This document shows positions 7,147 through 64,000 of a stretch of 64,000 bases of DNA, piece after piece (positions within the stretch are counted from its first letter, which is position 1; every line of letters begins with the position of its first letter). The position numbers and the translations under genes are program-made. Below the pieces are notes generated by a model that saw nothing but the letters and a program-made list of their open reading frames with translations, did not search any database and had not been told where the DNA came from. This DNA is from Candidatus Caenarcanales bacterium (GTDB taxonomy: Bacteria; Cyanobacteriota; Vampirovibrionia; LMEP-6097), in the NCBI GenBank assembly GCA_022447685.1, contig JAKVAO010000004.1:1978-65977 (forward strand). The letters run 5' to 3'.

Positions 7147-7204
7147 AAATATGCAGTAAAACTTCAGATTTAAATCGTAAATGTGCAGTAGAACTTCAGA
7201 TTTA
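7147..7204 (+). promoter_or_regulatory. two 26-bp direct repeats (AAATATGCAGTAAAACTTCAGATTTA / AAATGTGCAGTAGAACTTCAGATTTA) upstream of ATPase gene
   Basis: 24 of 26 positions identical with a 32-bp period. The repeats end 4 bp before a TATAAT box at 7209..7214 and the ATG at 7221. Confidence 0.4.
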
Positions 7205-7208
7205 TGGG

Positions 7209-7214
7209 TATAAT
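7209..7214 (+). promoter_or_regulatory. -10 box GGGTATAAT, 6 nt upstream of the ATPase start (leaderless-type)
   Basis: TATAAT hexamer at 7209..7214 and ATG at 7221. The same layout recurs at all four ATPase paralogs. Confidence 0.4.
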
Positions 7215-7220
7215 AAGAAT

Positions 7221-8393
7221 ATGGACTATATTAAACGAGTAATTAAATTACCGAAGAAATATAGTTTTTTCCTTTTTGGACCGAGACAAGTAGGTAAAAG
7301 TACTCTTCTAAAGAAATATTTTTCTGAGACTGAGAGTATGAAATATGATCTATTAGACTTTTCACTACTAAGGAAATTAGAAAAGGATCCCAGTATATTT
7401 TTTAATGAAGTAGAGTCAAGAGCTAAAAAAATAAAATATGTTTTAGTTGATGAAGTACAAAAACTCCCTTGGATACTAGATGAAGTTCATAGAGTGATTG
7501 AGAATAGTGAAAATCCACCTTATTTTATACTCACAGGTTCAAGTTCACGCAAACTAAAACAATCTCAAGCCAATCTTCTAGCTGGCAGGGCAATATCAAA
7601 ATTTCTATTTCCATTTATCTATGAAGAACTGCACAATTTTAATTTAAATGAAATCTTGCAATTCGGTTCTCTACCTAATGTTTATCTTCAGGAGGACAAA
7701 AATATTAAATACGAAATCCTGAAATCATATACCAACACATATATAAAAGAAGAGATTAAAGAAGAAGCTCTGGTTAGAAATCTCAATGCTTTCAATGAAT
7801 TTTTATACTTTGCTGCTGAAGAGAATGGCAATCTAATAAATTACAGCAATATAGCTCAAGATACTGGAGTTAGTTTAAATACGATTAAGGAATATTATCA
7901 AATACTCATGGATACATTAATGGGTTTTATGCTCATGCCAATCAGAAAGTCAGTCAGGCAACAAATAGCAAGAAGCCCAAAGTTCTATTTTTTTGATACT
8001 GGAGTTCAAAGAGCTTTAAGCAACAAACTACAAGTAGCACTAGTCCAAAAAACCAAAGAATACGGTAAAGCTTTTGAGCACTGGCTTATAAAAGAAATCA
8101 TCTATAAATCTAAGTACAACAATAAAGACTATAAGTTTTCTTTCTATAGAGTAAATGAAAATATTGAAGTTGATTTAGTAATTGAAAAGCCAGATGGAGA
8201 AATACTTGCTATAGAAATCAAAGCAAATAATAACCCTAAAGCAGAAAAATTGAAAGGTTTAAAATCATTTAATAAAATTTTCCCTGAAGCAAAGCTAATA
8301 TGCTCCTGTCTTACAGACAAAATCCAAGAGATAAATAAAGATAATTATAAAATTACTATAATTCCATGGCGAGATCTTCTTGAACTTATATGA
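7221..8393 (+). CDS. AAA+ ATPase, DUF4143 family (COG1373), paralog 1
   Basis: Walker A motif LFGPRQVGKST near the N-terminus, an hhhhDE Walker B (YVLVDEVQ) and a C-terminal DUF4143-like region. It is paralogous to the genes at 15624, 17649 and 62291. Confidence 0.8.
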   Translation: MDYIKRVIKLPKKYSFFLFGPRQVGKSTLLKKYFSETESMKYDLLDFSLLRKLEKDPSIFFNEVESRAKKIKYVLVDEVQKLPWILDEVHRVIENSENPPYFILTGSSSRKLKQSQANLLAGRAISKFLFPFIYEELHNFNLNEILQFGSLPNVYLQEDKNIKYEILKSYTNTYIKEEIKEEALVRNLNAFNEFLYFAAEENGNLINYSNIAQDTGVSLNTIKEYYQILMDTLMGFMLMPIRKSVRQQIARSPKFYFFDTGVQRALSNKLQVALVQKTKEYGKAFEHWLIKEIIYKSKYNNKDYKFSFYRVNENIEVDLVIEKPDGEILAIEIKANNNPKAEKLKGLKSFNKIFPEAKLICSCLTDKIQEINKDNYKITIIPWRDLLELI

Positions 8394-12942: not shown

Positions 12943-14199
12943 ATGGCAGAAAAAAAAGGAAATTTCTTCTTCACTTCAGAATCAGTAAGTGAAGGTCACC
13001 CAGATAAGATTTGTGATCAAATCTCAGACGCAGTCTTGGACGCGATTTTATCGAAAGACCAGACGGCGAGGGTTGCCTGTGAAACATTTTGTACTACTGG
13101 ACTTGTAGTTGTAGGTGGTGAAATCACAACTAATTGCTACGCTCCAGTAAATGAGATCGCAAGAGACAAAATTAGAGAAATTGGTTACTCAGGAAAAATG
13201 GGCGGCGGTTTCGACGCTGATAACTGTTCTGTAATGGTAACTTTAGACCAACAATCAGCTGATATCTGTGCAGGTGTTGATAAATCACTAGAAACTAGAG
13301 ACAGCGATGAAGAAGATACTGGTGCTGGTGACCAAGGAATTATGTTTGGCTTTGCTTGTAATGAAACTTCAGAGTACATGCCGCTTGCAATTAATCTTTC
13401 ACACGCGATAGTGAAACAATTAGCTGATGTCAGAAAAAATCACCCTGATATCAACTATCTAAGACCTGACTCTAAGTCTCAAGTAACTATAGAGTATAGA
13501 GACGGTGTAGCTGCAAGAATAGAAGCTATAGTAGTTTCCACACAGCACGATCCAGAAGTTAAGGGTGAAACAGAAAACTCTAAAATCCAAGAAATTATTG
13601 CACAGGATATTAGAAAACTAGTTATAGACAAAGTCCTAAAAGACGCACCAGTTAAAATTGATGATAAAACCAAACTCTACTTCAATCCATCAGGAAGATT
13701 CGTAATCGGTGGACCACAAGGTGACGCTGGTCTTACTGGTAGAAAAATTATAGTAGATACCTACGGTGGCTATGCCCGTCATGGTGGTGGTGCTTTCTCA
13801 GGAAAAGACCCAACCAAAGTAGATAGATCCGCTGCTTATGCAGCACGCCATGCAGCGAAAAATATAGTAGCTGCTGGTTTAGCTGAACAATGTGAAATTC
13901 AACTTTCTTATGCTATTGGTGTAGCCAAGCCTACAAGCATTTACGTAAACACGTTCACAACTAGTGAACATTCTGACGAGAAACTTGTTCAAATTATCGA
14001 ACAAGTTTTCGATTTCAGACCTAAAAAGATCATTGAGAACTTCGATTTACTGTGGATGCCAGCTAAAAGAAATGGTAGGTTCTATCAAGAAACAGCTAAA
14101 TATGGTCACTTCGGTAGAGATGATTTAGATTTGCCTTGGGAAAGACTTGATAAAGTTGATGAAATTAAGAAAGTTCTTGAAAGTGCTTGTGTGGCTTAA
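12943..14199 (+). CDS. metK: S-adenosylmethionine synthetase
   Basis: [39 protein letters not shown] and [23 protein letters not shown] are MetK signature blocks. Confidence 0.95.
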
Positions 14200-15611: not shown

Positions 15612-15617
15612 TATAAT
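15612..15617 (+). promoter_or_regulatory. -10 box AGGTATAAT, 6 nt upstream of ATG 15624
   Basis: Same GGTATAAT-N6-ATG arrangement as at 7209 and 62278. Confidence 0.4.
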
Positions 15618-15623
15618 ACAAAT

Positions 15624-16829
15624 ATGCAAAAAATTTCCCGAACAATATTAAGTAAATTAATATCTGAGCTGGAGAACGACAAAGTATTGATTCTTTTAGG
15701 AGCAAGGCAAGTTGGTAAAAGCTTTCTAATGAATGAACTAGAGTTAAAACTTAAAAAAGCATCCAAGAAATTTAATAGCTATAACTTAGAAATCCCAAAA
15801 GATAACCGAATCTTCGCTAGAGATGAATTAGAGCTATATGAAGAAATCAGTGAAGGAGTAAATTATTTATTTATAGATGAATTTCAATATTATAATAATG
15901 CTTCTCATTTATTCAAAGCCTTTTATGATGATAGAAGAAAAAAAATCAAAGTTATAGCATCTGGTTCATCTGCTTTAGAAATGCATAAACACCTAAAAGA
16001 AAGTTTAGCTGGCAGAAAAAAAACCTATATTATTTACCCACTTAGCTTCAAAGAAGCTCAAGAAACCAAGGTCAGTTTTAATAATTATTTACTATACGGT
16101 GCTTTAGCAGAAATCCTTAATATAGAACAAAAAACAGATAAAATCACTGCACTTGAAGAAATACACAGTACTTATATATTAAAAGATATCAAAGCACTGA
16201 TTAAAGAAGAAAGTATTTCTAGTTTCAATGCTTTAATATACAGCTTAGCTCAAAACCAAGGACAAATTATTTCAAGTAATTCTTTAGCGAATGATTTGCG
16301 TTTAAATACACAAAGCTTAGAGCGTTACCTAGAGATTCTAGAACAAACCTATGTTCTTTATAAATTATCTAGTTTTTCTAAAAACTTAAGTAATGAGCTA
16401 AAAAAATCTAAAAAATACTATTTTTATGACAGTGGAATTCGAAACTCAATACTAAATAACTTCTCATCGATAGAAAAAAGAAAAGATAAAGGCAGTATCT
16501 ACGAAGCTTACGTAGCACAATTCTTAACTATTAACTCAATACCAAACTCAGAGCTTCGCTTCTGGAGAACCAGGAATGGAGATGAAATTGATTTCGTATT
16601 CTTAAAAAACCAAGTTCCGTATTTATTTGAGGTAAAATCGAAACTAAAAAGAAAAGAAATTCCAAATGCTATGAAAATCTTTTTGCGTAATTACCGTGAG
16701 ATTGGTGGAGCTTATATCATTAACGAAAACCTTGATGAGGAACTAGAATATTCTGGAGTAACTGTAAGATTTATTCCAATTAATAAGCTAGAAGAAGATT
16801 TGGAGATAGCTGAAATATTTTCAACTTAA
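15624..16829 (+). CDS. AAA+ ATPase, DUF4143 family, paralog 2
   Basis: The ORF track starts at TTG 15597, which would run through the TATAAT box. From ATG 15624 the protein MQKISRTILSKLISELENDKVLILLGARQVGKSF aligns with the N-terminus of paralog 3 and shows high identity to it overall. Confidence 0.8.
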   Translation: MQKISRTILSKLISELENDKVLILLGARQVGKSFLMNELELKLKKASKKFNSYNLEIPKDNRIFARDELELYEEISEGVNYLFIDEFQYYNNASHLFKAFYDDRRKKIKVIASGSSALEMHKHLKESLAGRKKTYIIYPLSFKEAQETKVSFNNYLLYGALAEILNIEQKTDKITALEEIHSTYILKDIKALIKEESISSFNALIYSLAQNQGQIISSNSLANDLRLNTQSLERYLEILEQTYVLYKLSSFSKNLSNELKKSKKYYFYDSGIRNSILNNFSSIEKRKDKGSIYEAYVAQFLTINSIPNSELRFWRTRNGDEIDFVFLKNQVPYLFEVKSKLKRKEIPNAMKIFLRNYREIGGAYIINENLDEELEYSGVTVRFIPINKLEEDLEIAEIFST

Positions 16830-17572: not shown

Positions 17573-17611
17573 TTACTTAAGAATCCTGCCACTAGCAAGA
17601 TTCTTAAGTAA
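17573..17611. promoter_or_regulatory. perfect 13-bp inverted repeat TTACTTAAGAATC-N13-GATTCTTAAGTAA in the cysE/ATPase divergent region
   Basis: Arms 17573..17585 and 17599..17611 are exact reverse complements. The element sits about 25 bp upstream of the -10-like box of the ATPase gene. Confidence 0.35.
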
Positions 17612-17636
17612 TGGTTAGGAATTCCACCCAAAGTGG

Positions 17637-17642
17637 TAAAAT
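17637..17642 (+). promoter_or_regulatory. -10-like box GGTAAAAT, 6 nt upstream of ATG 17649
   Basis: Conserved position relative to the start in all four ATPase paralogs. Confidence 0.35.
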
Positions 17643-17648
17643 TAAGTA

Positions 17649-18863
17649 ATGCAGGAATTTCAAAGACAATTAATAGAAACCCTGCTTAAAGAACTTACGA
17701 ACTCTAAAGTTACCTTAATCTTTGGACCTAGACAGAGTGGTAAAAGCTTTTTGATGAATCACATAGCAAGTCAAGTAAAAGGCAAATTTACTTACTACGA
17801 TTTTGAACAACCTGCTGATCTTAGAAAATTTACAGGCAATGATGAGGATATACATGAACTACTTCTAAATTCAGGCAAAACAGTATTCATAGACGAATTT
17901 CATTATCTAAAAAATGCCGGGAAAATTTTTAAAGGAATCTATGACTTAGGTAAACGTAACCCTAAAAAACAAATCAAAATCTTTGCCTCCGGCTCTTCTG
18001 CCATTGAAATGCACAAACATATAAAAGAAAGTATGGCTGGAAGAGTTCACAAATACCAACTTATGCCTCTAAGCTTAGAAGAATACTCATCTATTGATTT
18101 AGATAAAGAAAATTACTTTATTTATGGTGGCTTACCAGAGACTTATCAATATGACGGAGAAGAAAGAGAGAGCTACCTAAATGGTATTCTTGAAACCTAC
18201 ATCCAGAAAGACATTAAATCTCTAGTAAAAGAAGAGAACATTTCAAGTTTTAATAAATTAATCTATATGCTTGCAGCAAGTCAAGGACAAGTAGTCTCAG
18301 TGAGTAATCTTGCAAATGACTTAAGCGTATCAGCACAAACAGTTCAATCTTACCTAGATACTTTGGAGCAGACTTATACTCTTTATCCTTTGAAATCCTT
18401 TTCAAATAACCTTAGCAATGAATTAAAAAAATCGCGTAAGTACTACCTCTATGACCTAGGAATTAGAAATGCACTAATTAAAGACTTTAGTAAATTAAAT
18501 GAGCGCAAAGATCTTGGCTGCATTATGGAAAGCTATGTTTATCACTATCTTCTCTTCATAGCCAATAAAGCAAATACCGATATTTTCTTCTGGAGAACTA
18601 GTAAAGGCAATGAGGTAGACTTCGTCTGGAAAAAAAATCAAAAACTTATTCCTATAGAGGTAAAAAACAAATATGAAGTGAGTAATCTTAGTAAAGGTAT
18701 GGAAACCTTCATGAGATATTACCCTCTAACAGAAAAAGCTATTATTTTGTTTAATAAGTCAAATAATTTTGATGATTATCAGGAAATTAATCTTCGAGGT
18801 AGGACTCTTTATTTAATAAATATTGGAAATGCTCATTTATACTTGAGGGATGTTTTGCAGTAG
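17649..18863 (+). CDS. AAA+ ATPase, DUF4143 family, paralog 3
   Basis: Walker A motif IFGPRQSGKSF, with long blocks identical to paralog 2 (SSFN.LIY.LA..QGQ..S.SNLANDL.....Q....YL..LEQTY.LY.L.SFS.NLSNELKKS.KYY.YD.GIRN). Confidence 0.8.
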   Translation: MQEFQRQLIETLLKELTNSKVTLIFGPRQSGKSFLMNHIASQVKGKFTYYDFEQPADLRKFTGNDEDIHELLLNSGKTVFIDEFHYLKNAGKIFKGIYDLGKRNPKKQIKIFASGSSAIEMHKHIKESMAGRVHKYQLMPLSLEEYSSIDLDKENYFIYGGLPETYQYDGEERESYLNGILETYIQKDIKSLVKEENISSFNKLIYMLAASQGQVVSVSNLANDLSVSAQTVQSYLDTLEQTYTLYPLKSFSNNLSNELKKSRKYYLYDLGIRNALIKDFSKLNERKDLGCIMESYVYHYLLFIANKANTDIFFWRTSKGNEVDFVWKKNQKLIPIEVKNKYEVSNLSKGMETFMRYYPLTEKAIILFNKSNNFDDYQEINLRGRTLYLINIGNAHLYLRDVLQ

Positions 18864-30225: not shown

Positions 30226-33200
30226 TTAGTTAACCTCTTTGTATCTAAGTTTCACAACTGGGTTTGAAATACTGTCATCCAAAACTTCTATTTCCAAAAG
30301 ATTATCTGATCCAGCAATATAAGTACTGTTATCAACTTTAATGAAATAACTTGGGAAACTTGGGGTAAAAAAGCCAGTTAACCTTAAGAAATATCTATGA
30401 CCTTGATGTAAATTAGTTGCTGTAAAAGTAGTATTGGAAGTCATAGTCTTAGTGAAATAACTATGTTCAGCACTTAAATCAATTACATTGCCAACTAAAA
30501 CACCCTTATCAGTAGTAAGAGAAGAAATAGTACCTGGTGCTAAGTCAGCAGCAGTAATACTACCATCTTGAATATCATCACCAGTTAAAGATTCATCTAG
30601 AACTTTATCTGTGGTAACAGCATCAGGAGCTAACTTAGTATTAATTACACTGCCATCTGCCAAATCTACTGTATCAATAGTTCCATCTAAAATATCAACT
30701 GAAGTAATTGAGTTATCAGCAATCTCAGTTGTAGTAACAGAAGCAGGTCCAACAGTAATTGCACCTAAAGTACTTGGGTGAAGATCCTGAGGTAGAATAG
30801 TTCCATCAAGTATCTTAGTTGTAGTTACTGCATTTGGTCCTATTTTCTGATTAGTTACCGCCGAGATACCAAGATCAGCACTTTGAATCGAAGCATCTAA
30901 AATATGGAAAGAGTTTACAGCAGAGCCTAAAATTTTGTCAGATGTCACCGATGAATTAGCGATTTTTATTGATGTAACCGATGCTGAAGCTAGTTTGGTA
31001 TCAGTTATAGAAAAATCTGCTATCTTTGATGTAGTAACCGAGTCATTAATTAACTTAGGCGTTGATATAGAATTATTAGCAATCTTAGCTGCTGTTACAG
31101 CATTATTTGCTAATTTTGCTGTTGTTATTGAACCATCAGCAACAGTAAGAGAAGTTAATACAACTGGATCTAGATCTGCTACTTGGATAGTGCCGTCTAA
31201 TATCTTACTACTTGTTACTGCATCTACAGCAAGCTTAGGGGTCGTTACACTACCATCAGCTAAATCAACTGTCACAATAGTACCGTTTTGGATATTGGAA
31301 GATAAAATTGTATTGTTTGCTATTTGAACATTAGTAATAGAGTTATTGGTAATATTTGATGCTGTTATCGTACCTGAAGCTAAATCAGCACCTGTTATTG
31401 TTCCATCCAAGATCTTGTCAGTTGTGACAACATCTGCAGCAAGCTTAGGATTAGTTACGCTACCATCAGCAAGCATAGCTGTAGTTACTGAACCTGCTCC
31501 AGGTACCACAGAACTTAGGACACTTGGATCTAAGTCTGCTACTTGGATAGTTCCATCTAGAATCTTGTTACTTGTTACTGCGTCTGTAGCGAGTTTAGAG
31601 TTGGTTATACTACCATCAGCTAAGTCTACAGTCTGGATTGTGCCATCCTGAATATTTGTAGATAGGATAGTATCGTTGTCTATCTGAATATTGGTAATAG
31701 AATTATTTGTAATGTTTGATGCAGTTATCGTTCCTGGGGCTAAGTCTGCACCAATAATTGTTCCATCTAGAATCTTTCCAGTGGTTACTGCATCTGAAGC
31801 AAGCTTAGGATTAGTTACACTACCATCTGCTAAGTCTACTGTTTGAACACCACCATCTTGGATCTTAATACTAGTTACTGAATTATCAGCTAGAGAACCA
31901 GTACTAATAGTTCCTGGAGCTAGGTCATCGATTGTGATCGAACCGTCTAAAATATCATCACCAGTTAAACTTTCATCTACTACTTTTGTAGTGTCTACCG
32001 CATCACCTGCTAGTTTCACTAATGTTACTGCTGCATCTGCTAGATCAGCTTCCATTACTTCACCATCTAGAATCTTTCCAGTGGTTACTGCATCTGAAGC
32101 TAATTTAAGATTAGTTACACTACCATCAGCCAAGTCTACAGTTGCAATAGTACCGTCTACTATCTTGATACTTGTTACTGAATTGTCTGCAAGTATTGTA
32201 TTAGTTACTGAACCTGCTCCAGGTACCACAGAACTTAGGACACTTGGATCTAAGTCTGCTACTTGGATAGTTCCATCTAGAATCTTGTTACTTGTTACTG
32301 CGTCTGTAGCGAGTTTAGAGTTGGTCATACTACCATCAGCTAAGTCTACAGTCTGGATTGTGCCATCCTGGATATTAGTAGACAAGATTGTATCGTTGTC
32401 TATCTGAATATTAGTAATAGAATTATTTGTAATGTTTGATGCAGTTATCGTCCCTGGGGCTAAATCTGCGCCTGTGATAGTACCATCTAAGATTTTATCT
32501 GTGGTAACTGCATCTGGAGCTAGTTTCACATTAGTCACACTACCATCTGCAAGAGAACCTGTACTAATAGTTCCTGGAGCTAAATCATCAACAGTAATTG
32601 AGCCATCTTGAATATCATCACCAGTTAAGCTTTCATCAACTACCTTTGTAGTATCTACAGAATCTACTGCTAACTTAACTAATGTCACAGCATCGTCTGC
32701 TAAATCATCTGTGATAATTGTTTCATCTAAAATCTTGTCTGTTGTTACTGCATCTGAAGCTAATTTAGGATTAGTTACGCTACCATCTGCTAAGTCTACC
32801 GTTTCAATAGTACCGTCTATTATCTTGATACTTGTTACTGAATTATCTGCAAGTATTGTATTAGTTACTGAACCTGCTCCAGGTACTACTGAAGTGAGTA
32901 CACTTGGATCTAAATCAGCAACTTGAATAGTTCCATCTAAAATCTTATTACCTGTTACAGCGTCATCAGCTAATTTAGGATTAGTTACAGCTAGGTTTCT
33001 AATTTTATTAGTTCTAACTGCATTGTTTCTAATCTTACTAGTTCTAACACTTGCATTGGCAAGATCAGCAGTAGCTATAGTTCCATCTAAAATTTTATCT
33101 GTTGTTACTGCATCTGCTGCAAGTTTAGGATTAGTTACACTACCGTCTGCAAGAGAACCTGTACTAATAGTTCCTGGAGCTAAATCATCAACAGTAATTG

Positions 33201-35679
33201 AACCATCTTGAATATCATCACCAGTTAAACTTTCATCAACTATCTTTGTCGTATCTACAGAGTCTGCCGCTAACTTAACTAATGTCACAGCATCGTCTGC
33301 TAAATCATCTGTAATAATTGTTTCATCTAAAATCTTGTCTGTTGTTACTGCATCTGCTCCAAGTTTAGGATTAGTTACACTACCATCTGCAAGCTCTGTT
33401 GTACCTACAGAACCTGGAGTAATACCAGTGATATCAGATAATCTTGCAAGAGTACCATCTCCCTCTGGAAGAGTTAAGTTTACATCTGCTGTGCTTGCAC
33501 CATTTAAAATGAATTTTGCATTATAAGTTAAGCCATCAAATGTTATCGCTTCTGTTGTAGCACTACCATTACTACTCTTTAATCTTAAAGCTTCATCCAA
33601 AGAATTCAATACTGTTGTATCTAAGTCTGCTACAGTGATCGTGCCATCTAGAATCTCATCAGAAGTTACTGAACCTGTATCTAAATCATCTGCTGTTAAT
33701 GAATTGTCTATAACCTTATCTGAATTAACTGAATCTGTTGCTAACTTGAGAACTGTTACATGACCATCTGTAATCTTGTCTGTAGTAACACTATCATTTG
33801 CTAAATCTACTGACGTAATAGTGCCATCAAAAATATTTCCACCAGTCAAAGTATTAGGAGCTACATCAGCACCGAAAATAGAGCCGTCCTGAATATCAAC
33901 ACCAGTTAAAGTACCGTCAATAACTTTATCTGAATTAACTGAATCTATTGCTAGTTTTAAAACTGTTACATGACCGTCTGTGATCTTACTTGTAGTAACT
34001 GCATCATCGGCTAGATCAGCTGTTCCTACTTCACCATCTAAAATTTTATCTGTTGTTACTGCATCTGCTGCAAGTTTAGGATTAGTTACACTACCATCTG
34101 CAAGCTCTGTTGTACCTACAGAACCTGGAGTAATACCAGTAATATCAGATAATCTTGCTAAAGTACCATCTCCCTCTGGAAGAGTTAAGTTCACATCTGC
34201 TGTGCTTGCACCATTTAAAATGAATTTTGCATTGTAAGTTAAACCATCAAATGTTATCGCTTCTGTTGTAGCACTAGCATTACTACTTTTAAGTCTTAAA
34301 GCTTCATCCAAAGAATTTAATACTGCTGTATCTAAGTCTGCTGCCGTGATTGTGCCATCATCTATCTTGTCAGTTGTTACCGCATCTGCTGCTAATTTAG
34401 GATTAGTTACACTACCATCTGCTAACTGAGCAGTATTCACAGTTCCATTACCAGGAGTTAAACCTACTAAATCCTCTAATCTTGCTACAGTACCGTTTGC
34501 TGCAGGCAAAGTTAAATTAGTTAATTCAGCCTGAGAATTCAATACAGTATTAAAATTACCAATATAGGTTGTGAACTTAGTAGTGTCAGTAGAGCTTTGC
34601 AGCTTCTTAACTGAATCATCACCATCAGGATTAAAAACAAAGTTTCTTCTAGTACTATTAGAAGTGAAATATAAATCACCTGAATTATCAAATTCAAAAG
34701 CACCTTCTGTAAGTGAGCTTGGTAGAGGACTTGGTCTAAATCTCATAATTGGTAACTCTTGAGAATTATCACCTGGAGCTATATCCAAAGTCGCCTCAGG
34801 ACTATCTTCATTAATACCAATTCTTCTATTAGAGTCTATAACTAGAATAGGAACCGATGGATCTGTGCTTGATGTTACAGCCATGATTTTACCGTTTTGA
34901 ACAATAATTGGAAGATCACCAGAAATACCAGAAGTTTCAGTTCCAGGATTAGCCTCTGAAGTTTCAGAATCAAAGTCTACTACTTCATTAGAACCATATC
35001 TTAGTCTTTTACGTCTAACTACCTCTCTTTTGCGAGAAGGAACAACTGGAATATTTACCTCAACAGTATTATTTTGGTTATCAGAAACAACAGAAATAGC
35101 CTTAGAATTACCTCTTGTGCTAGCATTCCATCTAACGTTGTTTACAAGGAAATCCATCACAGTTTCTTTAACTGAATCATAATCAGGGTTTACACTTTGA
35201 GCTAAATTATTTGCATAAACACCTTCAGCGTTTAAATCTACACTATTAGTTAATAATAATTTATCGTTAGAAGCATACCACTCGATGTAAACAGTTTTAG
35301 ATCCAGTAAATGGCATTAAAGGTAAATCTAATTGATAATCTTTTAAATTTTTCTTACCCTTTGGGAATTTTACGTAGGTTTTTGAAATTACATCTTTTTG
35401 TCCTAAAGCATTAACCTCATATGCTCTATACGAAAAAGAATCTTCCGTACTATCAGGAGCCAAAAATAAATTTGGGCTTACCCTTAATCTTAGACGCGCC
35501 TCACTTTCTGGAAAAACTTTATTAAAGTCTTCATCCTGGCCAAATACGTTAATATCGCATTCACCTGATACACATTCCAAAGGAACGAACTGAGCCTTCG
35601 CTATATTTGGCATGAAATAGCCCTGCAGTAAAACTGCACATAGCAAGGTCAAGGTTAAGGTTTGTCTAAGTAATTTCAT
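30226..35679 (-). CDS. giant secreted repeat protein (1817 aa), decapeptide-repeat beta-solenoid-like; putative surface adhesin
   Basis: N-terminal signal peptide MKLLRQTLTLTLLCAVLLQGYF. A non-repeat head of about 430 aa is followed by roughly 130 copies of a ~10-aa unit ([IL]-x-[DN]-[GA]-[ST]-[IV]-T-x-x-[KND], for example LADGSVTNPKLAADAVTTDKILDGTI), and then a C-terminal domain of about 100 aa. Confidence 0.8.
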   Translation of the reverse strand: MKLLRQTLTLTLLCAVLLQGYFMPNIAKAQFVPLECVSGECDINVFGQDEDFNKVFPESEARLRLRVSPNLFLAPDSTEDSFSYRAYEVNALGQKDVISKTYVKFPKGKKNLKDYQLDLPLMPFTGSKTVYIEWYASNDKLLLTNSVDLNAEGVYANNLAQSVNPDYDSVKETVMDFLVNNVRWNASTRGNSKAISVVSDNQNNTVEVNIPVVPSRKREVVRRKRLRYGSNEVVDFDSETSEANPGTETSGISGDLPIIVQNGKIMAVTSSTDPSVPILVIDSNRRIGINEDSPEATLDIAPGDNSQELPIMRFRPSPLPSSLTEGAFEFDNSGDLYFTSNSTRRNFVFNPDGDDSVKKLQSSTDTTKFTTYIGNFNTVLNSQAELTNLTLPAANGTVARLEDLVGLTPGNGTVNTAQLADGSVTNPKLAADAVTTDKIDDGTITAADLDTAVLNSLDEALRLKSSNASATTEAITFDGLTYNAKFILNGASTADVNLTLPEGDGTLARLSDITGITPGSVGTTELADGSVTNPKLAADAVTTDKILDGEVGTADLADDAVTTSKITDGHVTVLKLAIDSVNSDKVIDGTLTGVDIQDGSIFGADVAPNTLTGGNIFDGTITSVDLANDSVTTDKITDGHVTVLKLATDSVNSDKVIDNSLTADDLDTGSVTSDEILDGTITVADLDTTVLNSLDEALRLKSSNGSATTEAITFDGLTYNAKFILNGASTADVNLTLPEGDGTLARLSDITGITPGSVGTTELADGSVTNPKLGADAVTTDKILDETIITDDLADDAVTLVKLAADSVDTTKIVDESLTGDDIQDGSITVDDLAPGTISTGSLADGSVTNPKLAADAVTTDKILDGTIATADLANASVRTSKIRNNAVRTNKIRNLAVTNPKLADDAVTGNKILDGTIQVADLDPSVLTSVVPGAGSVTNTILADNSVTSIKIIDGTIETVDLADGSVTNPKLASDAVTTDKILDETIITDDLADDAVTLVKLAVDSVDTTKVVDESLTGDDIQDGSITVDDLAPGTISTGSLADGSVTNVKLAPDAVTTDKILDGTITGADLAPGTITASNITNNSITNIQIDNDTILSTNIQDGTIQTVDLADGSMTNSKLATDAVTSNKILDGTIQVADLDPSVLSSVVPGAGSVTNTILADNSVTSIKIVDGTIATVDLADGSVTNLKLASDAVTTGKILDGEVMEADLADAAVTLVKLAGDAVDTTKVVDESLTGDDILDGSITIDDLAPGTISTGSLADNSVTSIKIQDGGVQTVDLADGSVTNPKLASDAVTTGKILDGTIIGADLAPGTITASNITNNSITNIQIDNDTILSTNIQDGTIQTVDLADGSITNSKLATDAVTSNKILDGTIQVADLDPSVLSSVVPGAGSVTTAMLADGSVTNPKLAADVVTTDKILDGTITGADLASGTITASNITNNSITNVQIANNTILSSNIQNGTIVTVDLADGSVTTPKLAVDAVTSSKILDGTIQVADLDPVVLTSLTVADGSITTAKLANNAVTAAKIANNSISTPKLINDSVTTSKIADFSITDTKLASASVTSIKIANSSVTSDKILGSAVNSFHILDASIQSADLGISAVTNQKIGPNAVTTTKILDGTILPQDLHPSTLGAITVGPASVTTTEIADNSITSVDILDGTIDTVDLADGSVINTKLAPDAVTTDKVLDESLTGDDIQDGSITAADLAPGTISSLTTDKGVLVGNVIDLSAEHSYFTKTMTSNTTFTATNLHQGHRYFLRLTGFFTPSFPSYFIKVDNSTYIAGSDNLLEIEVLDDSISNPVVKLRYKEVN
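31490..34340. repeat. higher-order tandem duplications (units of 600 to 720 bp, more than 90% identical) inside the giant gene
   Basis: Near-identical segments occur starting at 31491 and 32211 (720-bp period), at 32551 and 33151 (600 bp), and at 33361 and 34072 (711 bp). Confidence 0.7.
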
Positions 35680-47896: not shown

Positions 47897-50455
47897 TTAT
47901 AAAAAAGCTAGCTGAGATTTTTTTGCATCTATATCAGATCTAAGTGAATTAGCTTTATCCTCATCATAGTTAGGTGTTGACTCAAGAGTTAATAGTTCAC
48001 TTTCTAGACTTGCTATTTCATCTTCTATAAATATTCTTTGTTCTTCATCATTTGTAATATCTCTATTAACAAAGAATGCATCAACTGTATCTCTTGTAAC
48101 TGATTCACCATCAACATCCATAGTAAAGCTACTGGTTAAACTTATATCGTTACCATTTTTATCAAACTTCTCACCAACGTTTCCAGAGTAGTTAGTTGAA
48201 ATAGATGTGATGCCTACTTCTTCAAGACCTTTCATCTCACCTTTGCCAACTTTACCGTCTCCATCCATATCAGCCCAAACTTTAAGCTCACTGAATGCTT
48301 CATCTTCAGATGTAATTTGACCATCTTGGTTGGTATCTAATTTAGCTAATTCTTCATAACCATTATCAGCATCGTTTTGATCACCAAATAATTCTGAACC
48401 GTCATCAATTTGACCGTTACCATTTCTATCTAATGCTAAGAATGCATCATCAAACCCTTGACTACTTTGTGTCCATGCTGTTCTATCTAATTGTTGATCT
48501 GCATTTAAGTCGAAGTTAACTCCATTTTCAACAGATGTTAATTCGATTCCATCACCATCTATATCTAAGATCACTGGAGATGACCATCTGAAAGAAGAAT
48601 CAACTACTTCATAATCCTGACCTTCTACTTCAATTGTTTGACCAGCTACAGTATCATCTGCTACATCACCCCATGCATTAGTATTACCAGACAATTCATT
48701 TCTATCTATTGTTCCAAGAACCTCTCCAGAGTGAATATCTACTATTACTGGTGTCGTAGCAGACATTTCTTTATCTTCGTCTGACATCATAGCCAAGACA
48801 TTTTGATAAAGCTCGTCATTTGTTGAATCATAGTTTATTTGATTATAGTTATAACCATTATGATTATCACCGAATTGTCCACCAGATACACCCATTATAT
48901 CTCCAAGTGAATGTGCATCCCAACCACCAACTACTATTACTTCTCTAGGTGCAATCATATCCTGTAATTCACTACTAGTAACTGTTTGATCGCCGAAAGC
49001 AAATGTTTCTACATTAGTTACTGTATTAACATCACCATTATCATTATCAGTAAATGTAAAAGTATTATTACCTTCATCAGTTATTGAATAACTACTAAAA
49101 CCTTTATTTAGAGCTAAAGTATCATTTCCCTCGCCACCATCTATAGTATTGTCTCCATAACCGTCAGTTATTATGTCATCTCCAGCTCCACCTTCGATAT
49201 TATCGTTTCCTTCACTACCGTCAATGACATCGTCACCGAATCCACCATCTATGGTGTCGTTTCCAGCTCCACCGTCTATAGTATCGTCTCCAGCTCCACC
49301 ATCTATAATATCGTCACCAGCACCACCATCAATTGTGTCATCACCATCTCCACCATCTATAATATCGTCACCGGCTCCGCCGTCTATAATGTCATCACCA
49401 TCTCCTCCATTAATAGTGTCGTTACCTTCTCCACCATTAAGATTGTCATTGCCAGCTCCGCCATTAAGAATGTCATTACCTTCGCCACCAATCAATGTAT
49501 CGTTACCACCATTACCATTGATAGTGTCATCACCATCTAAACCATTTATTTCATCATCGCCATCGGTTCCCTCTAACACATCATCACTATCTGTAGCAAA
49601 ACCTAATGCGATAGCTTCATGTAATTCAGCTATTGTGAATAATTCTTCGCCATCATCAGTAAGGAATAAAAAGTTTTCTACACTCATTACAGTGGTAGTA
49701 TTTTCTGGATTATCAGCATCTGTAATTCTGATATTATTTCCGCTATCATAGTCAATTATAAAATCATCAGTACTTCCCTCAAAAACAACAGTATCTTCTC
49801 CTAAACCACCCATAACAGTGTTTTGTCCAGTACCAGCTACTATAAAGTCGTTTCCGTTTCCAGCATCTATTAGATCATTACCCGGACCACCATGTATATA
49901 GTCATCACCATTTCCAGCTATAATATGGTCATCACCGGCTTCCCCATAAATAACATCATTTCCATTTCCACCATAGACTCTGTCATCACCTGATCCAGCT
50001 AGTATTGAATCATTTCCACTACCGCCACTTATTAGGTCATCTCCTGCACCTGCGTCAATAACATCGTTACCACTAGTTGAACTTACATTATCATCACCAT
50101 CGCCACTATCTATGATTGCGTCACTAACTACTGCAGAAATTATCCTATCATTACCATCAAATGAAGCAATATTACTATTATCATAGTCATAGATTGTATC
50201 GCCGTCATTACTTCCTGATCTTATATCGTTGCCATTTCTATTAAAAGTATTATTGCCTGACAATTCGTTTCTCATTGAGTCCAAACGTGAACTTATATTA
50301 TCGACATCAATAGGAGCTAGGTCAGGATTATCCGCCATTGCTCTATCCAGTGTAGGGTCATATGATTGCCCATTAACCTTAACGCCTTTTCGGGTTAAAT
50401 TGTTCTCTTCAATGTTTATCAAACTATCATTTAAAAAATTATTATTTATAACCAT
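47897..50455 (-). CDS. RTX-family calcium-binding repeat protein (852 aa) with additional EF-hand/dockerin-like Ca loops
   Basis: More than 25 nonapeptide GGxGxDxUx repeats (for example GGAGDDIIDGGDGDDTIDGGAGDD). Later D-x-D/N-x-D-G-x-I loops (DRNGNGQIDDGSE, DTNQDGQITSEDE, DMDGDGKVGKGE). No signal peptide, consistent with a T1SS-type substrate. Confidence 0.8.
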   Translation of the reverse strand: MVINNNFLNDSLINIEENNLTRKGVKVNGQSYDPTLDRAMADNPDLAPIDVDNISSRLDSMRNELSGNNTFNRNGNDIRSGSNDGDTIYDYDNSNIASFDGNDRIISAVVSDAIIDSGDGDDNVSSTSGNDVIDAGAGDDLISGGSGNDSILAGSGDDRVYGGNGNDVIYGEAGDDHIIAGNGDDYIHGGPGNDLIDAGNGNDFIVAGTGQNTVMGGLGEDTVVFEGSTDDFIIDYDSGNNIRITDADNPENTTTVMSVENFLFLTDDGEELFTIAELHEAIALGFATDSDDVLEGTDGDDEINGLDGDDTINGNGGNDTLIGGEGNDILNGGAGNDNLNGGEGNDTINGGDGDDIIDGGAGDDIIDGGDGDDTIDGGAGDDIIDGGAGDDTIDGGAGNDTIDGGFGDDVIDGSEGNDNIEGGAGDDIITDGYGDNTIDGGEGNDTLALNKGFSSYSITDEGNNTFTFTDNDNGDVNTVTNVETFAFGDQTVTSSELQDMIAPREVIVVGGWDAHSLGDIMGVSGGQFGDNHNGYNYNQINYDSTNDELYQNVLAMMSDEDKEMSATTPVIVDIHSGEVLGTIDRNELSGNTNAWGDVADDTVAGQTIEVEGQDYEVVDSSFRWSSPVILDIDGDGIELTSVENGVNFDLNADQQLDRTAWTQSSQGFDDAFLALDRNGNGQIDDGSELFGDQNDADNGYEELAKLDTNQDGQITSEDEAFSELKVWADMDGDGKVGKGEMKGLEEVGITSISTNYSGNVGEKFDKNGNDISLTSSFTMDVDGESVTRDTVDAFFVNRDITNDEEQRIFIEDEIASLESELLTLESTPNYDEDKANSLRSDIDAKKSQLAFL

Positions 50456-60225: not shown

Positions 60226-60368
60226 TATTAGCCCAGTGCTAACTGAATGCAGTTATTTTCTTATGAAAATTACTGTGGAATTTTTCTTTGTAGTATTCGA
60301 CTTCATTTTCATTTACTTTAATCATTCCATTTAGTTTCGTATCATTTTGATTTTGCTCTTCATCAATT

Positions 60369-62090
60369 TTAGTTCGTACTATAGTTAAATCTTCTCCAAA
60401 TTTTTAAGTTTTTGGGGATATTCTTTATATGAGCTTCTCTCATATCTAATCTTCCATTTACTGTCATATTGTTTGGCAGTTTGACACTTTCAGATTCAGT
60501 TAATCCTTGCATTATGAGATCTCCATAAATATTGATTCCATCTTTTAGGACTGGGTTCCCACCCCATATTTTTAAATTACCAACTATGTTTTTAATATTA
60601 AAATTTCTAGTAGTTAAATCACTCATAAAATCTTCATCAAATGTTAAATTACCAATTACTATTTCAAGGTTTTTTATTAGGTTAAAATTTTTATAGTTGA
60701 TTTTTATTTCTTCTCCTGGATTTATAATTAGCTTAGTATTTTCAGTTATATCATTCTGTTCAAACGCTATTTCATTCTTGTTATAGGTATAATTAAATTC
60801 AGCTTTTAAAGCTTCTTGAATCTTTTCTTTGAGCTCTCTTTTATTTTTAAAAACTCTATTTTTGATTTCTGTAAATCTTTTATTTTCATCTGATGATACC
60901 CTAAAGGATTTTACTCTTGAGTCAAAACCGTCCTCTTGAGATAGGAATAATAGTTCATTTAGGTTTAGTTTCTTATCTCTGTTTAATTTATCTTCAATTG
61001 TATTTATTTTTTTTACATTTTCTACTCTTGATATATAGTTACGAAAATCTTTAAAGCTTGTAAGCTCAATCAGTTTTTCTTGAAGTTTATCTAGGTACAC
61101 AGAATCGGTTAGATCCTGATCTGTTTCTTCTCCCTGAATACTATCAATGTATTGATTTATGTATTGATTTTCTTTTATTTGAATTCCAATTTTAGGAATG
61201 TATTCATTTGTATTAGTTATATCAAAGTATATTAATAACTTATTATTGTCTTTTAAGTAAGACTCTGCATATGGAGTTAATCTAAAGCACCAATCGCTGC
61301 CTTTACTTTCGATTAGTTTTGTTAATTTTTCTTCGTCTCCTTTTGAGAATATATTCCATATGCCACTTGTGATTTCTTGTTCTTGTCTATTTATTTCCTC
61401 GTTGAAAAATTTTGCGTATATTTTACTAAAGGAAATACTCATGTTACTGAAGAATTCTTTGTCCTCTACTTTTAAACTCTTTGGATTCTTGAAATAGTTT
61501 TCGATTAGAGTTAATGTTTGATCGAGTGCTTGTGTATTTAATTCTGGGAATAGCGCTCTATCACCCGATTTTCTATCATTATCAAACTTTATTTTGTTAT
61601 TCTTATCTTTGCTTTGTTTTAGTTTGCTCAGTTGATGCCAAACTAAATATCTAGTTTTTGTTGAGTACTTATTTTTACAATCCTTTGAATCAAGGTAGTT
61701 GAGCCAGTTCTTTAATCCCTCTATTTGAGATTCTCGTGATAACTTTACTTCTATTGGCTCTTCTTCCTTTGCCTTTGGTGCTGTATAAAACCCATTAACA
61801 TATTCATTTTTTAGTGATTCATATTCTTTATTTTGCTCGTTTTCTTGGAGTGATTCAAAATATTCTTCACTGATATTGAAAAGTTTTTCAATTAGGTGAT
61901 TTGGATGTGAATTTTCTTTTTTTTGATGTAAAAGATTATTTAACTCCTCTCTTGCTTTTAAGATAATAGGGTTTTGGTTCTCTGTACCTTCTCTAATATT
62001 TTGGGGTGATAAATAATAGTTGAGTAATGACTTTCTAGCAAGAGGTAGATTATTTTTTACTATTTTTGCTATTGGAATCGAATTAGACAT
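60369..62090 (-). CDS. hypothetical protein (573 aa), N-terminus MSNSIP...
   Basis: K/N/E-rich with no recognisable domain. A 42-codon coding-like +1-frame ORF follows its stop (60240..60366). Confidence 0.55.
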   Translation of the reverse strand: MSNSIPIAKIVKNNLPLARKSLLNYYLSPQNIREGTENQNPIILKAREELNNLLHQKKENSHPNHLIEKLFNISEEYFESLQENEQNKEYESLKNEYVNGFYTAPKAKEEEPIEVKLSRESQIEGLKNWLNYLDSKDCKNKYSTKTRYLVWHQLSKLKQSKDKNNKIKFDNDRKSGDRALFPELNTQALDQTLTLIENYFKNPKSLKVEDKEFFSNMSISFSKIYAKFFNEEINRQEQEITSGIWNIFSKGDEEKLTKLIESKGSDWCFRLTPYAESYLKDNNKLLIYFDITNTNEYIPKIGIQIKENQYINQYIDSIQGEETDQDLTDSVYLDKLQEKLIELTSFKDFRNYISRVENVKKINTIEDKLNRDKKLNLNELLFLSQEDGFDSRVKSFRVSSDENKRFTEIKNRVFKNKRELKEKIQEALKAEFNYTYNKNEIAFEQNDITENTKLIINPGEEIKINYKNFNLIKNLEIVIGNLTFDEDFMSDLTTRNFNIKNIVGNLKIWGGNPVLKDGINIYGDLIMQGLTESESVKLPNNMTVNGRLDMREAHIKNIPKNLKIWRRFNYSTN

Positions 62091-62193
62091 ATTTCACGAG
62101 TAGTTATTAAGATAATTGTATTATGGTGTGGTTGTTTGTATTTATATTTTATACTTGTTTTATTTTCTGGTTGGCTTTTGTGCTTTTTAATTT

Positions 62194-62287
62194 TTCGACT
62201 ATAATCGATGAAAGTAGTTAATATTGATTTATTTCGACTATAATCGAAATAAAAGTTAAAATTGTAATTATTTCGGGTATAATCGAA
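62194..62287 (+). promoter_or_regulatory. three tandem 39-bp units, each carrying the near-palindrome TTCGA(c/g)(t/g)TATAATCGA(A)
   Basis: Copies at 62194..62208, 62233..62248 and 62272..62287 with exactly 39-bp spacing. The spacer sequences are also similar. The last copy supplies the TATAAT 7 nt before the GTG start at 62291. Confidence 0.5.
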
Positions 62288-62290
62288 ATA

Positions 62291-63523
62291 GTGACTAAAG
62301 GTTTACTACGTAAAAATTATTTAAAGTCTATTAAGCCTTTTATAGATAAATCTGTAATTAAGGTTATTATTGGTATGCGCCGTAGTGGGAAAAGTTATTT
62401 CCTAAGGCAAATAATTGAAAAGCTTATAGGGCAAGAAAAACAAGTTGTTTATATCGATAAAGAAAATTTGGATTTTAAAAATATTAGAGATTTTAATGAT
62501 TTAGATGAGTATATTAAATCCAAAATTAATAAGAGAAAAAAAACTTATTTATTTATTGACGAGATTCAAGATATTCAAGGCTGGGAGAAAGCAATAGCTT
62601 CATATCAAGGTTCAGGTAATTTTGATATTTATATTACAGGATCTAATTCTGAGCTTTTATCTTCTGAATTATCAACACTAATATCTGGTCGCTATGTTGA
62701 ATTTTATCTCTATACATTATCTTTTAATGAATTTATTGAATTTAGGAAAAGATCATTGAAAAAATTTAAACGTAAAAATTCTAATAAAGTAAATTTGCAA
62801 AAAGAATTTTTGAATTATTTGGCATTTGGTGGTCTACCAGGAATTCATGAATTTGACTTAGATAGAGAAAATATTTATAAATTAATAAATGCTATTTTCA
62901 GCACTATCGTTTTAAAAGATTTAGTAGCTAGGTATGAGATTCGAAATGTAAGAATTCTTGAAAATATTTATAGTTTTATTTTTGATAATATAGCTAATAT
63001 TTTTTCAGCAAAAAAAATTGCTGATTATTATAAATCTCAAAATATAAAAGTTAGTGTAGATACGGTTCTTAGTTATATATCTCATTTAGAAGCAGCTATG
63101 CTTTGTAAAAAAGTTCCTCGCTATGATCTAAAAGGGAAGAGACTTTTAGAAGTCCAAGAAAAGTATTTTTTAAATGATATTGGTTTTAGAAATGCTTTAT
63201 TAGGTTTTAGCTTAAAAGATATCAATGCTTTACTTGAAAATGTGGTTTATTTGCATTTGAAAATGGCTGGATATCAAGTATATATTGGAAAAATGGATAA
63301 TTATGAAATAGATTTTGTCGCCAAAAAGCGTGATGAAATAATTTATTATCAAGTTTGTTATTTACTTAATGACGAAAAGGTAGTAGAAAGAGAGTTTAGA
63401 CCTCTTCTCAGGATAGAAGATGCTTATCCTAAGTATGTTTTAAGTATGGATGAACTATGGGATGAGCATTATTGTGGGATTAAACGTTTGAATATTATTG
63501 AGTTTCTTTGTGAGGTTTTTTAG
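62291..63523 (+). CDS. AAA+ ATPase, DUF4143 family, paralog 4
   Basis: GTG start. Walker A motif IIGMRRSGKSY, Walker B (YLFIDEIQ) and the C-terminal DUF4143-like region. Confidence 0.8.
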   Translation: MTKGLLRKNYLKSIKPFIDKSVIKVIIGMRRSGKSYFLRQIIEKLIGQEKQVVYIDKENLDFKNIRDFNDLDEYIKSKINKRKKTYLFIDEIQDIQGWEKAIASYQGSGNFDIYITGSNSELLSSELSTLISGRYVEFYLYTLSFNEFIEFRKRSLKKFKRKNSNKVNLQKEFLNYLAFGGLPGIHEFDLDRENIYKLINAIFSTIVLKDLVARYEIRNVRILENIYSFIFDNIANIFSAKKIADYYKSQNIKVSVDTVLSYISHLEAAMLCKKVPRYDLKGKRLLEVQEKYFLNDIGFRNALLGFSLKDINALLENVVYLHLKMAGYQVYIGKMDNYEIDFVAKKRDEIIYYQVCYLLNDEKVVEREFRPLLRIEDAYPKYVLSMDELWDEHYCGIKRLNIIEFLCEVF

Positions 63524-63526
63524 TTT

Positions 63527-64000
63527 ATGGTTGAATTAAGTAAAGAATTTATAATTTCAGAGTTGAAGAGACTTGCTGAAGCGAATGGGGGGAAGGCTCC
63601 TGGTTTTTCTTTTTTTTATAAGGAGACTGGAATAAGCCATCATCAATTAAATTCATATTGGATAAACTATAGTGATTTAGTCAAAGAGTCAGGATATGAG
63701 CCAAATGAGTTTACTAAGGCATATACTAATGAATTTATAATTGAAAAATTTATAGGATTAATTGGTGAGTTTAAGCAATTCCCAACGCAAAGGATCTTAA
63801 GATTTAAGGCAAAAAACGATTATTCTTTTCCAAGTATGACAACAATGTGGGGAAAATTTGGTTCTAAATTCAACACAGCAAAAAAGATATTAGAATCAGG
63901 ATTAGCTGATAATAATTCTTTGGTTTTAGAAGTGTGTCAAGAAATTGTTGATAATCCTAAAAGTAAAGCTCAATTGAAGGAAAGTCTGGATTCTGAATTA
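63527..64000 (+). CDS. hypothetical protein, 3'-truncated by window edge
   Basis: The ATG lies 3 nt after the ATPase stop, suggesting translational coupling. At least 158 aa of coding-like sequence with no motif recognised. Confidence 0.5.
   Translation, partial: MVELSKEFIISELKRLAEANGGKAPGFSFFYKETGISHHQLNSYWINYSDLVKESGYEPNEFTKAYTNEFIIEKFIGLIGEFKQFPTQRILRFKAKNDYSFPSMTTMWGKFGSKFNTAKKILESGLADNNSLVLEVCQEIVDNPKSKAQLKESLDSEL

Follow-up and report, generated by a model that had tools for sequence, protein, structure and literature searches.

What is a strictly spaced series of palindromes doing at the very start of an ATPase gene? Three such palindromes stand 39 bp apart directly upstream of a gene for an AAA_14/DUF4143 ATPase in a 64,000-nucleotide stretch (hereafter the window) of contig JAKVAO010000004.1, from a genome of the Caenarcaniphilales, which are non-photosynthetic relatives of cyanobacteria. 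A first-pass annotation, made from the letters of the DNA, had read them as an operator which the ATPase itself might bind, and by the comparative evidence this core interpretation appears largely borne out. Across phyla and promoter types the array keeps its phase and position and is inherited together with the ATPase, and we think it rather probable that the palindromes serve as an operator array, cooperatively occupied by the ATPase of the adjacent gene, which would thereby repress its own leaderless promoter. As judged from sequence comparisons, the finding extends to a rule for the whole family, which ranks among the most abundant groups of defence candidates.

Three phased palindromes in front of the ATPase gene

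The pattern TTCGnnTATAATCGA occurs three times in the 64 kb, with 0 copies expected, and the start-to-start distances of 39 and 39 bp were obtained both by direct reading and by repeat search (Table 1), in agreement with the spacing first noticed. Tandem Repeats Finder reported a period of 39 with 2.7 copies and 81% matches at 62189-62290, the pattern TTCGNNTATAATCGA was matched three times in the window, compared with 0.00 for 100 shuffles, and no further convincing copy was found in the 64 kb when up to three mismatches were allowed. The array is real and far from chance. The symmetric core of the palindrome is 18 bp long, t-TTCGA-n-TATA-n-TCGAA-a, copy 2 together with its flanks (62228-62253) forms a near-perfect palindrome of 26 bp, and copy 3 ends 3 nt before the GTG start of the ATPase. 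The pattern originally given for the unit, TTCGAnTATAATCGAA, holds exactly for copy 2, and copies 1 and 3 each depart from it by one mismatch. Another repeat with a 39 bp lag lies 5' of the array, a 23-nt direct repeat of 78% identity (62112-62134 and 62151-62173) which may be chance in AT-rich DNA; it is unlike the palindrome unit, sits inside a strain-specific insertion and was not counted as a member of the array.

Orthologous loci retain the arrangement. Their ATPases share 91% (L002), 89% (L003), 89% (L096) and 65% (L004) identity with the window protein; the first three carry three palindromes at 39/39 bp with copy 1 at an unchanged position, L004 carries two, 39 bp apart, and copy 2 is conserved in all of them. 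The proximal copy is 100% identical across the window, L002, L003 and L096, has one change in L004, and begins 19 nt before the start codon in the window and every orthologue, this codon being GTG in the close relatives and ATG in L004. Only about half of the spacer bases are shared between orthologues, and about half are common to the spacers within the window, which lie in AT-rich DNA. The suggestion that similar spacers mark a tandem triplication of a whole 39 bp unit is therefore weak, as the orthologues conserve the palindromes and their phase and not the spacers or the unit.

The proximal palindrome coincides with a predicted promoter. The -35-like hexamer in the second spacer, TTAAAA, is the best promoter-like site of the region in a promoter scan (10/12 matches), and TTTAAA stands at the matching -35 place in L002 and L003. 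The distance from TATAAT to the GTG or ATG is 7 nt in all orthologues, a spacing from which a leaderless mRNA, or one with a 1-nt leader, is predicted. Relatives of the leaderless type carry TATAnTCGAA-N2-3-ATG, and the ATG of L004 stands at the position homologous to the window GTG, which supports the annotated start. Orthologue spacing and this shared motif agree with the proposal that the -10 of a leaderless-type promoter lies in the last copy. Two properties of an autoregulatory operator are present, namely overlap with the (predicted) core promoter and transcription start of its own gene, and dyad-symmetric sites fit for a dimer, whose arm centres are 11 bp apart in the logo of 309 distinct units described below. 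The comparative evidence likewise agrees with the view that this is an operator-type array of dimer-style palindromes and goes beyond three chance -10 boxes. A terminator scan of the array region found none, and the entire window gave no match in an Rfam scan and holds no tRNAs.

The sequence TAWAAT also stands 5-8 nt before the start codons of many unrelated genes of the window, including that of SAM synthetase (e.g. at 12943, 17530(-), 29351, 2597 and 20456), which suggests that leaderless mRNAs may be common in this Caenarcaniphilales genome.

Distribution across phyla and linkage to the ATPase

One genome per species (596 Gb) was scanned for two successive sites, TTCGNNTATANTCGA-N{10,40}-TTCGNNTATANTCGA, a pattern with 24 specified bases whose rough chance expectation is of the order of 0.1. 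At least 119 loci were found, in about a dozen bacterial and two archaeal phyla. Among the matches listed, to which the array counts in this section also refer, the bacterial groups were Bacteroidota, Spirochaetota, many Bacillota including Negativicutes, Mycoplasmatota, Verrucomicrobiota, Riflebacteria, Pseudomonadota, Bdellovibrionota, Actinomycetota, Fusobacteriota and Melainabacteria, and the archaeal groups were Methanosarcinales, Methanomassiliicoccales and Thermoplasmata. Chaining the sites with an allowed spacing of 25-55 bp gave 122 arrays, in which the spacing was 40 bp 157 times, 39 bp 45 times, 32 bp five times, and 30 and 42 bp once each, and which held two (52 arrays), three (57), four (9) or five copies (4). 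Spacing classes (39, 40 or 32 bp) agree with the ATPase tree. The logo of the 309 distinct units reads t-TTCGA-B-TATA-V-TCGAA-a, and the positions which the search pattern had left free (5, 16, -1 and +17) are 81-91% conserved.

For the 107 arrays far enough from the ends of their 8-kb tiles to be assessable, the association with the ATPase is close: 74 lie directly 5' of an intact homologue (28-48% identity to the window protein) whose reading direction leads away from the array. The neighbour is a diverged or tile-truncated homologue in about five further cases and an ATPase fragment in about ten, typically the final ~50 codons. In all, about 74% of the assessable arrays stand immediately 5' of a homologous ATPase. 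No other gene family co-travels, and clusters of flanking genes show within-genus synteny only. The palindromes usually occur once per genome, with nearly every assembly giving one locus and two assemblies giving two. The first-pass annotation had named scattering of the 39-bp unit as a generic intergenic repeat as the outcome which would speak against it; what we found are sites which occur in many genomes but usually once in each and usually attached to the ATPase.

The genus Solobacterium shows the array with and without its gene at a single site. Two or three units lie ~100 bp 5' of mutS, with no ATPase, in five species (L008, L010, L065, L071 and L103), and in a sixth species (L074) the ATPase is present at the same mutS site, homology breaking directly past the proximal palindrome. 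Species which are otherwise 93-95% identical have exchanged their spacers and the 45 bp to the left of the array. The mutS site looks like a hotspot exchanging array and ATPase cassettes.

Retention of the palindromes across promoter types

The proximal palindrome is always locked to the gene start, and the promoter logic around it depends on the host. A Spirochaetota clade and the window clade place the central TATAnT 6-7 nt from the start codon (the leaderless arrangement), while Bacillota, Treponema and Veillonella have a 12-22 nt leader with AGGAGG after the palindrome. In the Bacteroidales a TAnnTTTG box (the Bacteroidetes -7 box) separates units 2 and 3, the third unit being degenerate and containing the ATG, and in a Methanomassiliicoccales archaeon the box TTTATATA (an archaeal TATA box) follows the last unit, with the ATG ~24 nt later. 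That the palindromes, TATA centre included, persist in hosts in which TATAAT plays no part in promoters speaks for sites bound by a protein and against mere -10 boxes. The cis element would have stayed intact in passing between bacteria and archaea, with the surrounding promoter rebuilt for each host.

Homologues and paralogues with other arms

An unbiased sample of 80 metagenomic loci encoding homologues (39-54% identity) was compared as well. The TTCGA palindrome is present in 5 of its 70 assessable loci, and it was rejected as a mark of all close homologues. What recurs is the phase: a direct repeat matching at ≥10/12 positions at a lag of 38-42 was found in 41 of 67 distinct upstream regions, against 3.6 in shuffles, and the histogram of lags has a sharp peak at 39-42 bp (12, 18, 11 and 6 loci against ~0.6) with a second harmonic near 80. 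Most units in the sample are palindromes with a TATA-type centre and lineage-specific arms, examples being GGTTATAACC, TTCTGTATACAGAA, TTATCAGATATAACTGATAA, TTTCAGTATAATGAAA, TTGAAGTATACTTCAA and AGTTTCTTTTATAAAAGAAACT. The closest homologues outside the Caenarcaniphilales show a variant, TTTCGATATATCGAAA (L133), a degenerate form (L134) or none (L135), and plasmid homologues are mixed, two of the four examined having no array.

A similar picture emerged for the paralogues. Five AAA_14/DUF4143 paralogues are present in one genome region, all with GGTAWAAT-N6/7-start. Gene 7221, of a more distant paralogue family, carries AAATRTGCAG-N5-CTTCAGATTT twice at a spacing of 32 bp, abutting its -10, and its orthologues (77%, 65% and 58% identity) keep the palindrome AAATCTGnAG-N5-CTnCAGATTT in that place. 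The repeat upstream of gene 17649 is TTACTTAAGAATC-N13-GATTCTTAAGTAA and that of the L001 paralogue is TTTTGGACCA-G-TGGTCCAAAA, and no repeat was established upstream of 15624, the ATG which is probably the true start of the open-reading frame (ORF) annotated from 15597.

The ATPase and its candidate reader domain

The encoded protein is a full-length member of PDC-S01 (profile PDLC04787, E 1.9e-149, residues 3-408), with Pfam matches to PF13173 (AAA_14, E 2.7e-34) and PF13635 (DUF4143, E 2.2e-18). DUF4143 has been classed as a family of the PD-(D/E)XK nuclease fold (PMC3424549). PDC-S01 proteins (AAA_14/DUF4143, COG1373) are described as very abundant fusions of an ATPase with a PD-(D/E)XK domain, and a 2026 survey ranks the family as the fourth most common defence candidate in prokaryotes, experimentally unvalidated (PMC12988326).

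An AlphaFold2 model of the ATPase, built on 52 homologues (predicted local distance difference test score, pLDDT, 87.8), is divided into an AAA+ core (residues 1-160), a lid of helices, a winged helix and, at 297-408, an alpha/beta domain compatible with a nuclease fold. The modelled winged helix (~220-293) has the topology alpha1-beta1-alpha2-alpha3-beta2-beta3, with helices at 220-232, 240-249 and 256-268, a strand between the first two, and a beta-hairpin at 273-293. Foldseek placed the Pyrococcus Walker-type ATPase 2qen first (E 1.3e-8), followed by 2qby_A (E 2.1e-7) and 2v1u_A (E 6.8e-6), both of them Orc1/Cdc6 bound to origin DNA, the next matches being origin recognition complex subunits, clamp loaders and STAND NTPases; a search of the PDB with the sequence itself returned no chain at E ≤ 0.01. 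The first-pass annotation had taken the DUF4143 C-terminal region for a winged helix-turn-helix (HTH), and the model does predict such a domain there, with a nuclease-like alpha/beta domain following it, both inside or adjoining the Pfam DUF4143 envelope. In the nuclease-like domain E316, D341 and Q354 are invariant and the canonical lysine position (D...Q-x-K, in the 339-357 region) is variable, with the consensus QVxY, which leaves its catalytic competence uncertain.

We compared 69 proteins with TTCGA operators to 61 without. Operator class is most strongly associated with the alignment column of residue 257, which stands N-terminally in the predicted recognition helix and is D in 66 of the 69 TTCGA-class proteins and E, D, N, K or others in the second class; 15 of the 25 top class-associated columns fall in residues 220-313 (hypergeometric P = 6e-5). 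D257 was also associated with CGA-type arms in the unbiased set (odds ratio 6.3, P = 0.006), where helix motifs and arms pair as xDTV with CGA, [IL]NTVYNY..A with GGTTATAACC, IDNETVYSY with GCGGTTTAAAACCGC, and MATETIINY with TTATCAG...CTGATAA. These tests of helix-arm co-variation are only suggestive. Because the array is co-inherited with the ATPase, and because helix and arms appear to co-vary, the ATPase's own winged helix is the best candidate reader. The first-pass annotation had offered the ATPase as one candidate binder; as the sole co-travelling gene, with a predicted winged helix which seems to follow the arms, it now stands as the best one. A ~40-bp-phased array whose arms change with the protein would, as a family-wide rule, explain how paralogues avoid cross-talk, and PDC-S01 proteins are often present as several paralogues per genome.

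Proposed autoregulation and its alternatives

We propose that dimers of the ATPase read each 18-bp palindrome (half-site tTTCGAnTA) through the recognition helix of the winged helix. As the proximal site spans the -10 hexamer and the predicted transcription start of the leaderless promoter, its occupancy would shut off transcription of the ATPase's own gene; the two upstream sites, at their fixed 39-bp phase, would lead to cooperative binding, and three dimers might form one higher-order AAA+ assembly. In a naive cell newly reached by transfer, the promoter would stay active until ATPase protein has built up. The controller proteins of restriction-modification systems allow a burst of expression on entering a naive cell in this way, followed by self-repression. 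We infer the ATPase as the binder, repression as the result of binding, and the oligomeric state and stoichiometry of the complex.

Several observations weigh against autoregulation by a bound ATPase. No ATPase is within reach of 16 of the 107 assessable arrays (~15%), which implies that an array can persist, or act, without an adjacent gene; many other seeming orphans proved to be artefacts of 8-kb tile ends or to lie beside ATPase fragments. Two related phage contigs from IMG/VR carry orphan two-unit arrays beside a tRNA gene (L124, 825-880; L125, 1614-1669), and a second two-unit array in the Melainabacteria metagenome-assembled genome which also carries L096 lies in a small ORF of a P2-like prophage region (L111, 3417-3472); such phage and prophage arrays could be decoys, targets or relics. 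Several homologues, e.g. those of the plasmid loci L127 and L129, have no recognisable array, and the co-variation tests are confounded by phylogeny and by the differing sources of the two samples. A phase of 39-40 bp corresponds to 3.7-3.8 helical turns, which puts successive sites off one face of the helix, so that simple side-by-side cooperativity does not explain the phase, and DNA wrapping or a helical AAA+ oligomer is indicated instead. Finally, about 11% of the 309 units have palindromic flanks extended by ≥4 bp, and these flanks vary in sequence. The 35 units observed compare with an expectation of 5.4, and many are the proximal unit; no explanation considered accounts for this excess, and a model of plain duplex binding does not need it.

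As simple repression leaves the phase unexplained, we keep as the main rival, though an unlikely one, the reading that the array is mainly an origin-like assembly or loading platform, on which an Orc1/Cdc6-like ATPase oligomerises, wraps or melts the DNA and licenses its nuclease, autoregulation being a by-product. The fold of the ATPase resembles Orc1/Cdc6-DNA complexes, its gene adjoins its own array of sites as orc1/cdc6 adjoins its origin recognition boxes (ORB) or dnaA adjoins oriC, and a fixed phase off the helical repeat, AT-rich spacers, a TATA palindrome centre and arrays which persist without the gene, including those on phage contigs, would all suit a platform. Against this, a proximal unit locked to the -10, the transcription start or the start codon is the hallmark of promoter control. 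The loci are chromosomal, single-copy and set among housekeeping genes, one genome can hold as many as five paralogues, each with its own sites, and no replication or mobilisation genes co-travel. The orphans would also suit a selfish or recombinational repeat, either of the repetitive extragenic palindrome (REP) or miniature inverted-repeat transposable element (MITE) kind or a set of recombinase sites, which came to lie at hotspots incidentally beside an often-transferred gene. Variation in copy number from two to five, the Solobacterium mutS array with or without its ATPase and with swapped spacers, the proximity of arrays to tRNA genes in L004, L124 and L125, and the extended flanks of some units are in keeping with this, yet we consider it improbable: the arrays keep a strict orientation and distance relative to the ATPase start, transposases and recombinases do not travel with them, many orphans lie beside fragments of ATPase genes and would be decay products, and the operator arms co-vary with the ATPase. 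Nor do the palindromes behave as dispersed REP elements, bacterial interspersed mosaic elements (BIME) or MITEs, with no other copy in the 64 kb and mostly one locus per assembly among the matches listed.

Every palindrome has TATAAT or TATAGT on both strands and the proximal one is well placed as a -10, and the units could in principle be stacked sigma-70 promoters (three -10 boxes), or sites of a general host factor, with no dedicated binder. We find this very hard to credit, since TTCGA arms and a 40-bp phase are no features of promoters, the array is kept, with the host's own boxes inserted, in Bacteroidota and Archaea whose promoters do not use TATAAT, no host factor can be common to about a dozen bacterial and two archaeal phyla, and the arms differ among ATPase lineages. 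Just as remote is a role as hairpins of RNA or single-stranded DNA (attenuator, terminator, processing site or repeat of the clustered regularly interspaced short palindromic repeats, CRISPR, kind). Each unit can fold as a hairpin, A-runs and T-runs flank some units, and the excess of extended self-complementary flanks of varied sequence would be at home here, but no covariation was seen at the central positions 6/11, where the share of Watson-Crick pairs, 35%, equals the expectation, and the complementarity of the flanks is weak overall. With these positions and most flank positions no more complementary than expected, a base-paired structure was rejected as the main explanation; in the leaderless arrangement, moreover, the mRNA would begin past the array. 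A CRISPR array was rejected as well, the total period being 39 bp, too short for CRISPR, with 2-5 units, no Rfam match and no cas genes among the neighbours.

Neighbourhood of the locus

The window locus is flanked by a sulfatase/Bat operon and by glycosyltransferases, and in L002, L003 and L096 the array starts 8 bp past the sulfatase stop codon. The ORF on its left in the window (60369..62090, minus strand, 573 aa, no Pfam hit) is missing from these three loci together with its flanks (60227..62192), so that the divergent promoter region which the first-pass annotation had described as shared with this gene is a strain-specific accident. The right boundary of the insertion (60227-62192) is the left edge of palindrome 1.

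The T5orf172/MUG113 gene which follows the ATPase (Table 1) was found only in the window clade (L001 and L002) and is missing from all other loci; it probably forms one operon with the ATPase, in this clade only. In L004 the 65% orthologue and its two-unit array (1-75) lie ~130 bp downstream of the 3' terminus (...CCA) of a tRNA gene, a kind of place that is a typical hotspot of integration. Elsewhere in the window two large ORFs contain long in-frame tandem repeats, at 49173-49535 (ORF 47897..50455, minus) and at 31165-31827 (ORF 30226..35679, minus), with periods of 27/54/81 bp and 360 bp, and probably encode repeat-rich surface or secreted proteins.

Table 1. Features of the palindrome array, the ATPase gene and related sites (window coordinates unless a locus is named)
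Feature	Position	Strand	Remarks
Palindrome copy 1 (distal), TTCGACTATAATCGAT	62194..62209	.	about -96 to -81 from the predicted transcription start
Palindrome copy 2, TTCGACTATAATCGAA	62233..62248	.	just 5' of the -35 position
-35-like hexamer TTAAAA	62256..62261	+	in spacer 2-3, 16 nt 5' of the -10
Palindrome copy 3 (proximal), TTCGGGTATAATCGAA	62272..62287	.	overlaps the -10 hexamer, extends to the predicted transcription start
-10 hexamer TATAAT (predicted)	62278..62283	+	centre of palindrome 3, 7 nt 5' of the start codon
AAA_14 + DUF4143 ATPase, 410 aa, GTG start	62291..63523	+	PADLOC PDC-S01
Predicted winged-helix coding region (residues ~220-293)	62948..63169	+	putative recognition helix 256-268, including D257
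T5orf172/MUG113 (GIY-YIG-related) gene, start	63527..64000, runs off the window (continues L001 11237-11995)	+	3 nt past the ATPase stop
Upstream regions of the other four paralogues	7147-7223, 15612-15626, 17573-17651; L001 14380-14440 (minus)		GGTAWAAT-N6-ATG

Comparison with known systems

In the literature on AAA_14/DUF4143, COG1373 and PDC-S01 we found no description of a conserved cis element, of DNA-binding specificity or of autoregulation, and the array element appears to be undescribed. For a family of experimentally unvalidated defence candidates it supplies a testable candidate DNA ligand (tTTCGAnTATAnTCGAAa, three sites 39 bp apart) and points to the winged helix as the candidate reader domain, with D257 as its candidate specificity residue. 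A wider conjecture, which we regard as doubtful, is that ~40-bp-phased, lineage-specific palindrome arrays are the universal cis partner and assembly scaffold of this PDC-S01 ATPase-nuclease subfamily, one structure setting both expression and the resting or sensing state of the defence protein. Were this true, three dimers on three sites could, for example, give a hexamer with the DNA wrapped, since the sites are off-phase, and the array copies on phage DNA (L111, L124 and L125) could be targets or decoys.

The nearest structural parallels are Orc1/Cdc6 with its ORB elements (PDB 2qby, 2v1u) and DnaA with oriC, in which an AAA+-lid-winged-helix protein has its cognate sites by its own gene, with autoregulation through those sites (as we propose here). 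By its Foldseek matches the modelled ATPase has this AAA+-lid-winged-helix fold, but by sequence Pfam gives AAA_14/DUF4143 and not Cdc6, and the window system has no replication-origin context. It differs further in an extra C-terminal PD-(D/E)xK-like domain, in several paralogues per genome with different sites, and in perfect palindromes with a TATA centre. Plasmid iterons and their Rep proteins also combine phased repeats by the gene of the presumed binder with autorepression through repeats overlapping the promoter, yet iterons are directional repeats of 17-22 bp, bound by monomers at a ~22-bp phase in a replicon origin. The units described here are palindromic and match both strands, the locus is chromosomal and no replication gene co-travels, and the iteron label of the first-pass annotation, in the replicon sense, fails on these grounds. 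NtrC-type enhancer-binding proteins are AAA+ dimers on two or three palindromic sites which assemble into a hexamer; they activate sigma-54 promoters at a distance through a C-terminal Fis-type HTH, whereas the sites in the window system overlap a sigma-70-type -10 and no sigma-54 element is present.

Closest in regulatory logic are the C-protein/C-box operators of mobile restriction-modification and defence genes, where palindromes bound by dimers likewise lie on the promoter of a mobile nuclease unit. C-protein systems use a separate small HTH regulator and two adjacent sites a few bp apart, whereas the reader proposed here is a winged helix inside a 410-aa AAA+ ATPase-nuclease, facing 2-5 sites at a 39-40 bp phase. 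Operator arrays are a known kind of element, and what appears new is a winged-helix reader carried within an ATPase-nuclease, a strict 39-40 bp phase across both prokaryotic domains, and lineage-specific arms.

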